Shown: one piece after another, positions 1,433-63,108 of the stretch
Layout: every line of letters starts with the position of its first letter
How positions within the stretch are numbered: the first letter of the stretch is position 1
DNA from: Escherichia phage BF17
DNA: 64,000 nucleotides
Direction: 5' to 3' (one strand)
Sequence record: MW822008.1
Translations under genes and position numbers: made by a program
Notes under the pieces: model-generated
Databases searched by the model: none
Told to the model about the DNA's origin: nothing
Seen by the model: the letters and a program-made list of their open reading frames with translations, nothing else

Positions 1433-1697
1433 AGTACTTATTGCTGAAACAATGAAGATGATTTACAATATCACGTCAGCACAGAATATGCCCTATCCAA
1501 CTAAGTCTTTATTGAGGACTGTGTATCTGGGGATAGTACAGGAGTACTACAAATCCAAGCACCGAAGCATTATTAGTGTTTATCGTGATTATGAAAGGAT
1601 TCGTATTTTATTCTGGAACAAGAATCGAGTACGTTCTGAATGTGACCTAGTGGACTTTAAATTAGAGAATCTTTATTGCTATAAACAGGGACAATAG
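1419..1697 (+). CDS. hypothetical small protein
   Basis: In-frame ATG at 1419 of track ORF 1401..1697, overlapping the stop of the 1256 ORF. Confidence 0.55.
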   Translation: MRTNEVLIAETMKMIYNITSAQNMPYPTKSLLRTVYLGIVQEYYKSKHRSIISVYRDYERIRILFWNKNRVRSECDLVDFKLENLYCYKQGQ

Positions 1698-1715
1698 TTT
1701 AATTCATGATATAAT
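1687..1715 (+). promoter_or_regulatory. promoter: AGGGAC-N17-TATAAT with a TG extension
   Basis: -35-like element at 1687..1692. TGATATAAT at 1707..1715. Gene start at 1756. Confidence 0.55.
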
Positions 1716-1755
1716 AATGGGTAAGGAACAATAATTAACACAAGGAGTGTGTGAA

Positions 1756-2484
1756 ATGCTTGACCGTATCCGTTTCGCTACAGAGATGGCGAATGAATTA
1801 AACATGGCAAATTTCCAAATGTTAACATCAGTAATGGCTGAACATGCATGTGCTTATTCTGTAAGTGGTGTGCAGTGTGGTCAGGAGAATATGTTAGCAG
1901 ATGTTTATAGTGAAGTGCAAAGTAAGCAATATAGTGTGAAGACATATAAGGATAAGTTTGTTAGTCTTTATATGAACGAAGATATTGCCGAAGACCGCAA
2001 ATTCACTGATTTTATTATTGAACGCCGAGTATCAGGTGTATCTAATCCTAATGCATCAAGCGAGGAAGTTTTTGCAGAAGTACTGAAAGATATATACGAA
2101 AATGAATTAAAAAGTAAGAATCATTACAATGTACGTGAAACTAACACAGTGCTCTTGGGATATGATGAAGACGAAGAATACTATTATTTTCGTATGACTG
2201 AAGTTCCTTTTGAATACAAATCTCCATATACAACTACAGTGAAAGAATTTACTGAAAAAAGTAAAAACTTCATGAAGCATGAAGGAAATCGTTGTAGTAT
2301 AAATGGTTATGACGAAAATGGCATTCACATTTATGAGTGGGTTCACCCAAATTGTCAGACATACACTCGTTGCTTGAAAAAACGTTATAATTTAGAAGAG
2401 CATGAATCATTCTATTTTAAAGTTAAGAAGCAAGGTTATACTCGCCCCGCTGATTCTGAATTGTTGGGTATGATATATTTCTAA
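1756..2484 (+). CDS. hypothetical protein
   Basis: ATG at 1756 preceded by AAGGAG. Promoter-like element at 1687..1715. No domain recognised. Confidence 0.7.
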   Translation: MLDRIRFATEMANELNMANFQMLTSVMAEHACAYSVSGVQCGQENMLADVYSEVQSKQYSVKTYKDKFVSLYMNEDIAEDRKFTDFIIERRVSGVSNPNASSEEVFAEVLKDIYENELKSKNHYNVRETNTVLLGYDEDEEYYYFRMTEVPFEYKSPYTTTVKEFTEKSKNFMKHEGNRCSINGYDENGIHIYEWVHPNCQTYTRCLKKRYNLEEHESFYFKVKKQGYTRPADSELLGMIYF

Positions 2485-2494
2485 GGAAACGGCT

Positions 2495-2776
2495 ATGGAT
2501 TTTTATCTACACACATGGACATACGAACAATATATTACATTATATCTTGAAATTATTAACACAGAACCTAGGTGTGGTTGTTGGTTCGCAGATATCATAA
2601 AAGAGTATGCTGACGAGTTCGAGTTTGTGTATCTTGGGTCTGATATATTTGTAAAAAGTGTAGGTAAAACCGGACGAATCACTGATATAGATTACGACAC
2701 TGTTAGTGTTAATTTCTATGTTGATTTTCCTGATACTGGCGTTGATGGTGTATATTGTCTTTATGAAATAATTTAA
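2495..2776 (+). CDS. hypothetical small protein (paralog-family-like)
   Basis: ORF track. Followed by an intrinsic terminator at 2784. Confidence 0.6.
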   Translation: MDFYLHTWTYEQYITLYLEIINTEPRCGCWFADIIKEYADEFEFVYLGSDIFVKSVGKTGRITDIDYDTVSVNFYVDFPDTGVDGVYCLYEII

Positions 2777-2783
2777 ATTCTTA

Positions 2784-2807
2784 GGCCAGCGTTTGCTGGT
2801 CTTTTTT
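2784..2807 (+). terminator. intrinsic terminator
   Basis: GGCCAGC-GTTT-GCTGGTC followed by T6. Confidence 0.7.
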
Positions 2808-2820
2808 CGCAGGTACAAAG

Positions 2821-3123
2821 ATGTTCAGTATAGATTTAATTAACAGTACTATCAAAATGTTGGCTGATTTGGTGAGACAATCCAATGGAACTTTATATCC
2901 ATCAATGTATAAAATGTTTGACCGATACATCAAGGATTGTAACATATCATTATATGGACTTACTGTTGATATAGACGATTACTATGGAATTAATACTTCA
3001 TATAAAACAGGAATTTTAATTGGTATTAATATAAAGATGGGGTATTTCCCTTATTACTGTATAGGATTACCAGATAATACTTTGGTAGAATATCCAGCCA
3101 GTACTATTAAATTAAGAGGATAA
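2821..3123 (+). CDS. hypothetical small protein
   Basis: ORF track. No domain recognised. Confidence 0.6.
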   Translation: MFSIDLINSTIKMLADLVRQSNGTLYPSMYKMFDRYIKDCNISLYGLTVDIDDYYGINTSYKTGILIGINIKMGYFPYYCIGLPDNTLVEYPASTIKLRG

Positions 3124-60809: not shown

Positions 60810-60825
60810 TAACAGAGGAATTGTA

Positions 60826-61011
60826 ATGGAATATACCATATGTGTAATTGTATGTATCATAGCCTTACTCGCAGGAGTTGGTGTGATGATTTACTGTGAT
60901 GCGGAACCAAGTACTGAAGTAGGTACAACCATCACACTTAAACCTGGTGTTAAAATTAATGATACCTATTGCTACAATCCAAACACAAACCGCTATGAGA
61001 TTTGTTTATGA
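60826..61011 (+). CDS. small membrane protein
   Basis: GAGGA upstream. Helix ICVIVCIIALLAGVGVMIY. Confidence 0.6.
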   Translation: MEYTICVIVCIIALLAGVGVMIYCDAEPSTEVGTTITLKPGVKINDTYCYNPNTNRYEICL

Positions 61012-61415
61012 GAACATTCAACATTGATTATATAATTGATTCGATTGCAGAACATATGAAAAACATAAGTAAAAACGAGCCTGGTTTTTACTTCAACTTA
61101 GATAAACTCCATCGCAATACCAATGTATCTAGTTTTAATCGTGCTAAGAAACTTTACATCCGTATACATAACCTTTGGTACAGTGACGATACGTTGATGA
61201 TAGATATTACTGTTGATGAAGACATAACATTAAGATACATTGACGATTTTAAATCAGATGATATTCGTGCTGGATCATTACCAATTGATGCTTCATATGA
61301 AGAATATCTGCAATACCAGTTCATTGATGACACATTTGGATTTGACTTTGATCTATATAATAGTATAATGAACGTATACCATATATACGAAAGGAATTTG
61401 AATGGACATTCGTAA
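61008..61415 (+). CDS. hypothetical protein, paralog of 61402
   Basis: ATGA overlap at 61008. QFIDDTFGFDFDLYNSIMNVYHIYERNL parallels MFIDDTFSIDYPSFQCILAIHKKYYDRL. Confidence 0.6.
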   Translation: MRTFNIDYIIDSIAEHMKNISKNEPGFYFNLDKLHRNTNVSSFNRAKKLYIRIHNLWYSDDTLMIDITVDEDITLRYIDDFKSDDIRAGSLPIDASYEEYLQYQFIDDTFGFDFDLYNSIMNVYHIYERNLNGHS

Positions 61416-61824
61416 AATACCAAATTTCCACAGTACATTAAGGTTCTTTTCTGAACAAGAAATCAGTACTGAAAGACGTGGCTTGATTTCATACAATCAT
61501 CATCGTGTTATGTACACTAATCATTTCCAGGGTACAGTTCGTATTAAATTTCGTAATGCACTCGACGACAATGATGAATTGTTAATTTTACTACGAAAAA
61601 GTAAGATAGAATTGACATACGCAACTCACCATATTGAAAGTGAGTTGATGTGGCACACACTATCAAAAAAAGAAGGGTCATTACCAGTTGATGATAATGG
61701 ACCAGAAACACTTGATCAGTACATGTTCATTGATGATACATTTAGTATTGACTATCCATCATTTCAGTGTATACTAGCTATACATAAAAAATATTACGAC
61801 CGTCTACGTGACAGATTAATTTAA
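61402..61824 (+). CDS. hypothetical protein, paralog of 61008
   Basis: See the 61008 entry. Confidence 0.6.
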   Translation: MDIRKIPNFHSTLRFFSEQEISTERRGLISYNHHRVMYTNHFQGTVRIKFRNALDDNDELLILLRKSKIELTYATHHIESELMWHTLSKKEGSLPVDDNGPETLDQYMFIDDTFSIDYPSFQCILAIHKKYYDRLRDRLI

Positions 61825-61835
61825 TTGGAGGCATT

Positions 61836-61958
61836 ATGATTGCTATGTTAGAAGAAGATTGGGGTGTTTCCGAGCAAGGCACTGATGAATATGAATACCC
61901 AGAATATAAGCCTAAAGGCTTTTGGGAACGTTTGCGTGATTGGTTGATGGGGGAATAA
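61836..61958 (+). CDS. small acidic peptide (40 aa, below the track cutoff)
   Basis: My own translation: MIAMLEEDWGVSEQGTDEYEYPEYKPKGFWERLRDWLMGE. GGAGG upstream. Confidence 0.45.
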   Translation: MIAMLEEDWGVSEQGTDEYEYPEYKPKGFWERLRDWLMGE

Positions 61959-61959
61959 C

Positions 61960-63075
61960 ATGAAAAAGTATTTGGTTGGCGGTTATACGAGAGATCGTTT
62001 AATGGGCATCCGTGCAAAAGACAAAGATTATGTCATTGTCGGTGCATCCGAATCTGATATTAAGTACTTGCAAAGTATTGGTTATAAGCAAGTAGGTAAG
62101 GATTTTCCTGTGTATCTCAGCCCAGAGGGTAATGAGCACGCATTGGCACGTACTGAACGTAAAACTGGTACTGGTTACGGTGGTTTCGAAGTGAATACTA
62201 AAGGCGTAACACTGGAACAAGATTTGTATCGCCGTGACCTTACAATTAATGCAATTGCGTATGATCCAGTACTCCAGATTCACATCGACCCTTATGGCGG
62301 GAAAGCTGATATCAAGAACAAAGTACTACGACATGTATCAGAACACTTTAAAGAAGATCCATTGCGTGTTCTACGTTTGGCCCGTTTCGCTACACGTTAC
62401 TCAGACTTTACAATCCATGATGATACTATGACAATGTGTAAAGATATGGTTAGTACTGGTGAACTAGACCATCTAGTCCCAGATCGTGTTTTTGTTGAAT
62501 TCGAAAAAGCACTTTCTGAAGAAAACCCTTCCAAGTTTATCAAAACTCTGGTACAATTTGGTTATTACGAAAAGGCATTTACTACAGTTCCAGTTACCAA
62601 GAAACGTCTGGAATTAATTGATGCTATCGCTGCAAATTGTACAGAAGAATATAAACCATATTTCTTATGGACAGTACTTCTTGAAAATGAAGAAGTAAAT
62701 AATGATTCAGTACTTAACGGTTCCATTAAGGTTCCAGTTAAGTACGTGAAGTTTAGTAATTACATCAAGCGTTTCCGTGAAGATATTAAAACCTTCCGTA
62801 AGAAGACCCCAGTTGAAATGGGACAAATCTTACTGGATATGAATATCAAAAACAATGGTGGTGAAGATTTCCTTTACAAAGTACTGGAAAACTTCATTTT
62901 GAACAAAGAAATTGATTCTGATCTTGAAGATTTGATTATTAAAGTTTATGATCGTTATACTGATGTTGAATTACCTGATATTCAGCAGTTAGTGAAAGAT
63001 GGTGAACTCCAAACATCGGAGATTCGTGATTTTGTTGCTGAATTGCGTATTGAAGCAATCAAGCAAATGTTCTAA
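61960..63075 (+). CDS. cca: tRNA nucleotidyltransferase (CCA-adding enzyme)
   Basis: Contains GGYTRDRLMG...DKDYV and RRDLTINA, the class II head-domain motifs. Confidence 0.85.
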   Translation: MKKYLVGGYTRDRLMGIRAKDKDYVIVGASESDIKYLQSIGYKQVGKDFPVYLSPEGNEHALARTERKTGTGYGGFEVNTKGVTLEQDLYRRDLTINAIAYDPVLQIHIDPYGGKADIKNKVLRHVSEHFKEDPLRVLRLARFATRYSDFTIHDDTMTMCKDMVSTGELDHLVPDRVFVEFEKALSEENPSKFIKTLVQFGYYEKAFTTVPVTKKRLELIDAIAANCTEEYKPYFLWTVLLENEEVNNDSVLNGSIKVPVKYVKFSNYIKRFREDIKTFRKKTPVEMGQILLDMNIKNNGGEDFLYKVLENFILNKEIDSDLEDLIIKVYDRYTDVELPDIQQLVKDGELQTSEIRDFVAELRIEAIKQMF

Positions 63076-63079
63076 AAGC

Positions 63080-63108
63080 TGGGACAAGTTAACATCTTCT
63101 GATATAAT
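63080..63108 (+). promoter_or_regulatory. promoter: TGGGAC-N17-TATAAT with a TG extension
   Basis: TGATATAAT at 63100..63108. Nudix ATG at 63151. Confidence 0.6.

Follow-up and report, generated by a model that had tools for sequence, protein, structure and literature searches.

Within a 64,000-nucleotide (nt) stretch of Escherichia phage BF17 (sequence record MW822008.1; the whole stretch analysed is hereafter called the window), the sites that combine GGGACA with the extended -10 sequence TGATATAAT are a real, conserved second promoter class, which we call class B. The class-B module is 29-30 nt long and has the form aaaa-TG(G/A)GACA-N13(14)-TG(A/C)TATAAT. We read class B as middle or delayed-early-type promoters that are recognised by the phage's own sigma factor, and we give this reading a probability of roughly 0.55. 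We infer that the sites fire, the timing with which they do so, and that the phage sigma, not another phage factor, reads the box. The window is DNA of an Asteriusvirus, a PBECO4/121Q-like (Rak2-like) jumbo phage of E. coli of about 350 kb; Escherichia phages PBECO4, G17 and Sharanji match its first 20-25 kb at 99.3-99.5% identity. It corresponds to about 25.8-89.8 kb of PBECO4, reversed, and the whole PBECO4 record (NC_027364.1) was used for genome-wide scans.

Enrichment of class B is far beyond chance. With 2.95 copies of TGATATAAT expected, the window has 10, nine of them on the + strand, and a count of 10 was never reached in shuffled sequences. The pattern GGGAC-N14-TGNTATAAT, with two mismatches or fewer, occurs nine times against 1.96 expected and on the + strand only. 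A weight matrix trained on 32 PBECO4 sites, all outside the region of the window, was applied with a cut-off of 16 bits. It found 10 distinct sites of at least 16 bits, again on the + strand only, whereas simulations averaged 0.36 and did not exceed 3. The ten sites are as follows (ORF, open reading frame).

1687..1715, + strand: class-B promoter AGGGACA-N13-TGATATAAT, 21.5 bits; upstream of ORF 1747-2484
5573..5601, + strand: class-B promoter TGGAACA-N13-TGCTATAAT, 25.2 bits; within the 3' part of the RNA ligase gene
9184..9212, + strand: class-B promoter TGAGACG-N13-TGATATAAT, 25.7 bits; upstream of ORF 9244/9304-9570
11457..11486, + strand: class-B promoter TGGGACA-N14-TGATATAAT, 24.0 bits; within the phosphatase gene, spacer longer by 1 nt
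16912..16940, + strand: class-B promoter TTGGACA-N13-TGATATAAT, 22.6 bits; upstream of the ClpP-like protease gene 16975-17670
23894..23922, + strand: class-B-like site AGGGACA-N13-GGATATAAT, 19.3 bits; within the nudix ORF and upstream of ORF 24022
26149..26178, + strand: class-B promoter TGGGACA-N14-TGATATAAT, 23.4 bits; directly after phoH, spacer longer by 1 nt
51371..51399, + strand: class-B promoter TGGGACA-N13-TGATATAAT, 18.0 bits; precedes a non-coding RNA
57725..57753, + strand: doubtful class-B-like site TGGGCAA-N13-TGCTATAAT, 17.3 bits; invariant AC missing
63080..63108, + strand: class-B promoter TGGGACA-N13-TGATATAAT, 27.3 bits, the top score of the window; upstream of the nudix hydrolase gene 63182-63595

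The natural register of the module is the 7-mer TG(G/A)GACA, whose end lies 13 nt before TGn; in this register GGGACA stands 16 nt from TATAAT and matches TTGACA at four of six positions. The initial annotation had listed seven GGGAC-type sites, all of which are present as written. It gave them an exact 17-bp spacing, from which 26149 departs with 18 nt between TGGGAC and TATAAT. Their location was described as intergenic, which is true in part, since several boxes share sequence with the final codons of the preceding ORF. Three strong sites that it did not list (5573, 11457 and 23894) are all within ORFs. The modules at these three sites, conserved in relatives, suggest internal promoters that break long operons, and promoter 5573 would drive ORF 5827 onwards. 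The listed sequence TGGGCA is indeed found at 57725, but its membership of the class is doubtful. The near-identity of 26149 and 51371 over about 30 bp did not hold, as only the first 11 nt (TGGGACATTAT) are common to both.

The initial annotation had named a lack of conservation in relatives as one of the observations that would speak against the element; the box is in fact kept at orthologous promoters. We compared 26 orthologous site pairs using fEgEco12 (about 86% nucleotide identity) and JNE01 (about 82%). Identity was 0.98 in the extended -10 and 0.86 in the box, where the A and the C reached 1.00 and 0.92, while it was 0.64 in the spacer and 0.69 and 0.73 in the flanks. Spacer length was constant in all pairs. 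Judged from these alignments, the class-B element is under selection: box and -10 are kept while the spacer drifts. The module also stands at matching sites before ssb, RNaseH, primase, exonuclease and DNA polymerase in six of six genomes compared. Three class-B promoters stand in tandem before ssb in JNE01 (segment positions 19739, 19820 and 19895), where the other phages examined have two.

At 1687, fEgEco12 keeps box and -10 with a diverged spacer, and JNE01 has the box cTGAACA at equal spacing. Box and -10 of 5573 are identical in both relatives, with 5 of 13 spacer positions changed in JNE01. The 9184 site is conserved in fEgEco12, as TGAGACA, and so is 11457, whose JNE01 box is TGGAACA in a region of just 71% identity. 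The orthologues of 16912 carry GTAGACA (fEgEco12) and CTAGACA (JNE01), with identical spacing and -10 and an unrelated spacer sequence. The 23894 site, in which the T of TGn is missing, is conserved in relatives, where coding constraint may explain the conservation. Promoter 26149 is present in fEgEco12, where 3 nt are inserted close to the -10, and is absent from JNE01, which has an extra gene after phoH. For 51371, fEgEco12 has the box CGGGACA and six changed spacer positions. Conservation is uninformative at 57725 and 63080, because the corresponding fEgEco12 regions are 96% and 99.8% identical; the -10 of 57725 also ends 5 nt before the annotated ATG and overlaps the Shine-Dalgarno region. 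A candidate at 60615 was rejected as a promoter: it is probably a chance match, and a 3-nt deletion in the fEgEco12 spacer breaks its spacing.

Two promoter classes emerged from the whole PBECO4 genome. When the 5-mers that precede each of the 762 TATAAT were counted without bias, two families stood out, TTGAC/CTTGC/ACTTG and GGGAC/GGACA/GACAA; GGGAC was found 11 times (0.15 expected) and GACAA 25 times (0.62 expected). Iterative scanning gave 39 class-B sites, on the gene strand only, against 0-3 in shuffles. Their consensus is aaaaaaaa-TG(G/A)GACA-aa-N-tg-TG(A/C)TATAAT-g, and the box holds about 1-1.4 bits of information per position. The canonical (early) class has the form aaaaagTAC-TTGCAA/TTGACA-N16/17-TATAAT-gttttacatc. 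TGn is present at 35 of 39 class-B sites versus 4 of 50 canonical sites, and the spacer is essentially fixed in class B versus 16-17 nt in the canonical class. Nearly half of the canonical sites (24/50) lie at 125-150 kb, a region of small genes, where there is no class-B site. Class-B sites precede ssb (two), primase, the gene after uvsW, RNaseH, exonuclease and DNA polymerase, and one lies before the gp55-like late sigma gene (PBECO4 310172). Class B thus appears to serve DNA/RNA-metabolism and replication genes together with the gp55-like late sigma gene. The proposal of a distinct regulatory or temporal class gains support from this sequence evidence, as the -35 region, TGn use and genomic distribution all differ.

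Across genera, the -10 remains TGnTATAAT and the box varies by lineage.

PBECO4, fEgEco12: box TG(G/A)GACA
JNE01: box a more A-rich mix
RaK2: box cTGAACA
SE_PL: box TTGGGACA, mostly 1 nt further upstream
EJP2: box TGAGACA
GAP32, Kaldavass: box TGAAACG or TGGAA(C/T)G
CBB: box TGAAACG

The hosts of these phages are all Enterobacterales, among which region 4.2 of sigma-70 should be near-identical. Since the box varies among phages whose hosts share a near-identical region 4.2, the reader of the box should be phage-encoded.

A sister motif was predicted earlier in phages CBB and GAP32. In CBB, MEME predicted a 'divergent RpoD-like promoter' (Promoter 1) of the form TGAAACG-N13-TGnTATAAT at 18 sites, mostly before DNA-synthesis genes and one of them before the gp55-like gene, and the same promoter type was noted in Cronobacter phage GAP32 (Buttimer et al. 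2017, PMC5259590). Both phages resemble class B in the 29-nt architecture, with a TG-initial box, 13-14 nt and TGnTATAAT, and the sequences of CBB Table S6 align in register with it. They also share the context of DNA-synthesis and gp55-like sigma genes; GAP32, like Kaldavass, has the promoters at orthologous positions of the replication module. Abbasifar et al. 2014 is likewise cited for GAP32. CBB, GAP32 and PBECO4 are of one phage family and encode an RpoD-like sigma. The boxes differ at positions 3-4 and 7, being TGAAACG or TGGAAC(G) there and TG(G/A)GACA here; TGGAACA variants exist at 5573 and at PBECO4 257308. The CBB study was a prediction only, without a lineage comparison or a link between box and sigma. 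The motif is unreported for Asteriusvirus in the literature searched. There, promoters had not been analysed in any Asteriusvirus, nor had transcription starts been mapped for a sigma-encoding Rak2-like phage; the published papers on RaK2, Sharanji, phAPEC6 and fEgEco12 contain no promoter analysis.

The candidate reader is PBECO4 gp356, an RpoD-like sigma with regions 2-4, encoded on the - strand at 45592-46557 of the PBECO4 segment compared. In Pfam, Sigma70_r3 scores above its curated cut-off, and r2 and r4 score slightly below theirs. Comparison with RpoD structures gave E = 5e-17, and the hhalign probability was 99.3%. Two canonical TTGACA-N17-TA(T/C)AAT promoters lie 1.3-1.6 kb upstream of the sigma gene, with no class-B site in between; a Pfam search of seven proteins neighbouring the sigma gene gave no match. 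Region 4.2 of gp356 has an insertion of 7-8 residues after ETLREIADNG, followed by RSSIHRKYSEAMQKLKK, which aligns gap-free to E. coli R584-ERIRQIEAKALRKLR. In this alignment R584, I587, A594, K597 and L598 are matched, as are L595 and R599, for which the phage has M and K. An AlphaFold model of 12 homologues has a confident C-terminal domain with a predicted local distance difference test (pLDDT) score of 83-87, in which a helix (274-280) is followed by a beta-hairpin (282-290) and the recognition helix (293-313, pLDDT about 85). In the turn of the region 4.2 helix-turn-helix, the insertion is thus predicted to form a beta-hairpin.

Positions 584, 585, 588 and 589 of sigma-70 have reportedly been implicated in -35 reading, in work of Gardella in 1989, Siegele in 1989 and Campbell in 2002. 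The residues equivalent to 584/585/586/588/589 are as follows.

PBECO4, fEgEco12, JNE01: R-S-S-H-R
SE_PL: R-T-S-H-R
EJP2: R-C-T-H-R
RaK2: R-G-T-H-Y
GAP32, Kaldavass: K-A-T-S-R

In these eight phages three helix types correspond to three box types, and the phages with G(G/A)GACA all have R-x-x-H-R. The sigmas of SE_PL and EJP2 are nearer to that of GAP32 (47% and 42%) than to that of PBECO4 (38% and 37%), yet they have the PBECO4-type helix and box. The RaK2 sigma is nearest to PBECO4 (48%), yet its helix and box are both different. The type of box therefore seems to track the recognition helix of the sigma, against the overall sigma phylogeny.

From these observations we propose a cascade in three steps. 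Host sigma-70 holoenzyme would first transcribe the early region from the canonical promoters (UP-like A-tract, TTGACA/TTGCAA, N16-17, TATAAT), including the operon with the phage RpoD-like sigma gene. The phage sigma would then displace sigma-70 on the host core RNA polymerase and read the class-B promoters, with its region 2/3 binding TGnTATAAT and its region 4.2, the helix-turn-helix with the beta-hairpin in the turn, binding TG(G/A)GACA 13 nt upstream of TGn. The class-B regulon would comprise genes of nucleotide, DNA and RNA metabolism and of replication, the gp55-like late sigma gene and four structured RNAs, after which the gp55-like factor would serve TATAAATA late promoters. There are precedents in SPO1 gp28, phiEco32 gp36 and phage 7-11 gp47, early phage sigmas that redirect the host core to phage promoters. 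Promoters of phiEco32 and 7-11 have similar genome positions and sequences that differ in step with their diverged sigmas (PMC8948821). Class B differs from the promoters of these sigmas in that its -10 is indistinguishable from the host consensus and only its -35 part is private. In addition, gp356 is much closer to RpoD than those sigmas are, with regions 2, 3 and 4 present, and recognition by it is here predicted from sequence.

More tentatively, and with somewhat less confidence than in the role of the phage sigma itself, we extend the proposal to Rak2-type sigmas in general. They may combine host-like -10 reading with a private region 4.2 that co-evolves with the lineage box (GGGACA, TGAACA, GAAACG), may form orthogonal pairs on the enterobacterial core, and may have a regulon that includes 2-5 structured RNAs of about 0.5 kb.

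Several points weigh against recognition by the phage sigma. The literature searched holds no transcription data for any Asteriusvirus. The residues of region 4.2 were mapped by inspection and with the structure model; because of the insertion, MAFFT and hhalign failed to align the recognition helix to that of E. coli, and the hhalign alignment ends before the helix. The correlation of helix and box consists of two independent co-changes only, and JNE01 has the same helix as fEgEco12 with boxes that are a more A-rich mix. The PBECO4 sigma lacks several sigma-70 determinants for the -10 and TG, although the class-B -10 is a perfect sigma-70 extended -10; the sigma has S/S for W433/W434, M for Q437, Y for both T440 and H455, and V for E458. 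Region 2.4 also varies by clade (IYMT versus IRQT/IRQH), the GAP32/SE_PL clade keeping IRQ (R436/Q437) and the PBECO4/RaK2 clade having IYM, while the -10 is constant. Since region 2.4 varies and the -10 does not, host sigma-70 would be a better fit as the reader of the -10. Moreover, since GGGACA lies at 16 nt and matches TTGACA at four of six positions, the host holoenzyme probably fires class B somewhat, so that host sigma-70 alone probably gives basal class-B activity.

These points lead to the rival that survives best, which is sigma appropriation. Host sigma-70 would read TGnTATAAT through its regions 2.4 and 3.0, and a separate phage DNA-binding protein would read the box at about -35 to -29, in the manner of MotA with AsiA or of a class-II activator; the phage RpoD-like sigma would serve other promoters. 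We consider this unlikely on balance, though it is a serious rival because the -10 is ideal for sigma-70 and the phage sigma is without W433/W434, Q437, T440, H455 and E458. The -10 is also invariant across clades whose sigma region 2.4 differs, and any co-evolving phage factor would be equally expected to give a lineage-specific box. In T4 middle promoters the MotA box has the same position as the class-B box. The likeness to T4 goes further: its middle promoters have a sigma-70-type -10, often with TGn, and a non-sigma-70 element at about the position of the -35 hexamer, they serve replication and nucleotide-metabolism genes between an early and a late class, and the late class uses TATAAATA and a gp55-type factor as here. 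The MotA box itself, (a/t)(a/t)(a/t)TGCTTtA near -30, is unrelated to class-B aaaaTG(G/A)GACAaa, and T4 is without the full RpoD-like sigma that these phages carry.

Against sigma appropriation, an AsiA homologue was not found in PBECO4 (tblastn of T4 AsiA, best E 0.83; MotA was not searched for). In a phage-wide AsiA search, the 40 of 1169 matches that were listed belong to T4-like genomes of about 160-190 kb and to a few fragmentary records. No third abundant motif that could suit the phage sigma was seen in the PBECO4 promoter scans. Nor is the box found as a stand-alone site: of its 42 copies on the gene strand, 16 have a promoter context, and the number of the others is what base composition predicts. 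The box follows the recognition helix of the sigma, not the sigma phylogeny. Finally, PA5oct-type Pseudomonas phages have the ssb module in common with these phages (11 records), and no RpoD-like sigma homologue was detected in them, even at E up to 1e-3; the PA5oct papers do not say if the phage has a sigma. At its orthologous ssb and primase promoters PA5oct has the canonical TTGACA, in two cases with TGnTATAAT.

It is improbable that host sigma-70 alone accounts for class B, as ordinary extended -10 promoters with a weak -35 in which the upstream purines reflect family history or strength tuning. GACA is common to the box and TTGACA, the spacing is allowed, and the CBB authors chose the name 'divergent RpoD-like'. 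TGn makes the -35 largely dispensable for sigma-70, and class B resembles the E. coli extended -10 promoters, which have TGnTATAAT and a poor -35 and work without -35 contacts. Unlike in those promoters, the -35 substitute of class B is strongly conserved, stands at a fixed spacing and is lineage-specific; since a dispensable -35 would be none of these, class B departs from plain extended -10 promoters. The non-consensus positions are conserved within each genome and coherently replaced between genera with closely related hosts, and GAP32 GAAACG matches TTGACA at just two of six positions. As the same genomes have many perfect TTGACA promoters, the deviation of class B would be selected and not a product of drift. 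An essentially fixed spacer, against 16-17 nt in the canonical class, is a further point against sigma-70 alone.

The initial annotation had also proposed that inverted repeats in the spacers of 26149 and 51371 form an operator. Only 26149 has a good palindrome.

26145..26169: palindrome TGTATGGGACA-TTA-TGTCCCATACA with arms of 10-11 bp, overlapping the box and spacer of promoter 26149

The repeat noted at 26151-26165 is the inner part of this palindrome, which starts 4 nt past the phoH stop codon (26141). As RNA it folds with -18.7 kcal/mol (z = -2.7), and a T-run after the hairpin is absent. In fEgEco12 the loop is changed and the arms are kept; in JNE01 the palindrome is absent. Binding of a dimeric phage repressor to the palindrome and to the weaker 51371 repeat, shutting off both promoters, would suit the perfect arms across box and spacer and their conservation in fEgEco12, but it is improbable, since no other of the 39 class-B promoters has a good palindrome, the repeat at 51371 has mismatches and is lost in fEgEco12, and a change of the loop and not the arms, 4 nt after the phoH stop, is what would be expected of a hairpin. 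Similarly, at PBECO4 274248 after uvsW, the 5' arm of the gene-end hairpin is the box and the loop changes in three phages, and the early promoters GGGTTGACTTCGGTCAGCCC have a like hairpin-promoter layout. The palindrome is better, though tentatively, read as a transcript-end hairpin fused to a promoter, which is simpler than an operator.

Promoter 51371 would drive one member of a previously undescribed family of structured RNAs that is absent from Rfam.

51406..51920, + strand: structured non-coding RNA of about 0.5 kb, with an intrinsic terminator at 51899-51920

The approximately 660 nt downstream of 51371 contain no credible ORF and are a gap in the PBECO4 annotation. The RNA has a fold z of -4.0. 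An Asteriusvirus genome has four paralogues, and other Rak2-like phages have 2-5. In PBECO4 each of the four follows a class-B promoter directly and lies in an unannotated gap of 600-840 nt (boxes at 38576, 94225, 195557 and 305471); those other than the window copy lie at 305392-304973, 94126-93764 and 195483-195144 of NC_027364.1. One copy stands immediately after the phage sigma gene, in RaK2 too. The terminator hairpin has a covarying stem in three of four copies. The RNA has homologues in 71 phage records, with between 2 and 5 copies per record, and nucleotide identity is 67-78% in GAP32, CBB and phages of Yersinia, Serratia, Erwinia and Salmonella. Scanning IMG/VR for an exact pattern brought up 19 loci, mostly on contigs of about 350-370 kb, and most of the copies with a detectable upstream extended -10 are preceded by the class-B box of their own lineage. 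An alignment of 18 sequences supports 73 consensus pairs, 38 of them with compensatory double changes, and includes long-range helices. A search of the window and the RNA region against Rfam 15 gave nothing above noise, and the RNA had no match even at E up to 10. A hammerhead core (GAUGAG...GAA in the RNA) was considered and rejected, since the CUGA turn is missing and no hammerhead model matched.

Directly after the RNA terminator, at 51927-51974, a second conserved block, TTCATTCCCCTGCGGGGGGATG...CAAATC(C/T)CGTCA, is found. The TTCATTCCCCTGCGGGGGGATG block follows most copies of the RNA in many genera (alignment columns 650-700). Within the RNA, a 17-nt direct repeat CGTCCAAAATTTGAGAA occurs at 51690-51706 and 51842-51858; it is in insertions of some paralogues only.

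Group-2 jumbo phages all encode an RpoD-like sigma, without experimentally defined promoters or role, and the present analysis provides a concrete candidate assignment of a sigma helix to a box. It also yields a list of 39 candidate PBECO4 sites and predicts a cascade in three steps. If the assignment is true, the lineage boxes would offer E. coli engineering a ready set of orthogonal promoter/sigma pairs. Annotation of operons and timing would also improve with the motif in genomes where more than 80% of genes are without known function, and the class-B-driven structured RNA family may serve as an independent lead into the RNA biology of jumbo phages.

The remaining promoter-like features of the window are listed below; the three canonical promoters of the initial annotation are present.

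20796..20824, + strand: canonical-type TTGACA-N17-TATGAT, with TG
48722..48750, + strand: canonical-type TTGACA-N17-TATAAT
60299..60327, + strand: canonical-type TTGACT-N17-TATAAT
35840..35847, + strand: T4-type late-promoter-like TATAAATA, 42 nt upstream of the 898-aa ORF 35882-38578

The TATAAATA at 35840 is the sole + strand copy in the window. The window has a G+C content of 33.6%, and its + strand carries nearly all genes, among them those for RNA ligase, polynucleotide kinase, DNA ligase, dCMP deaminase, NrdD and PhoH; Sir2, nudix, the CCA-adding enzyme and some structural proteins are also encoded.

Two observations concern the canonical promoters of PBECO4. Early promoters that are almost identical, aaaaagTAC-TTGCAA-N16-TATAAT-GTTTTACATCaagggg, are densely packed between about 133 and 153 kb, with one for each small gene, and the conserved block GTTTTACATC downstream of them suggests a common 5' leader or initial transcribed sequence. 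Fused terminator-promoter modules of the form aaaGGGTTGACTTCGGTCAGCCCTTTT-TG(C/T)TATAAT, in which the 5' arm of the terminator hairpin contains the -35 TTGACT, are found at PBECO4 174119, 175909, 176833, 181031, 183697 and 187122.

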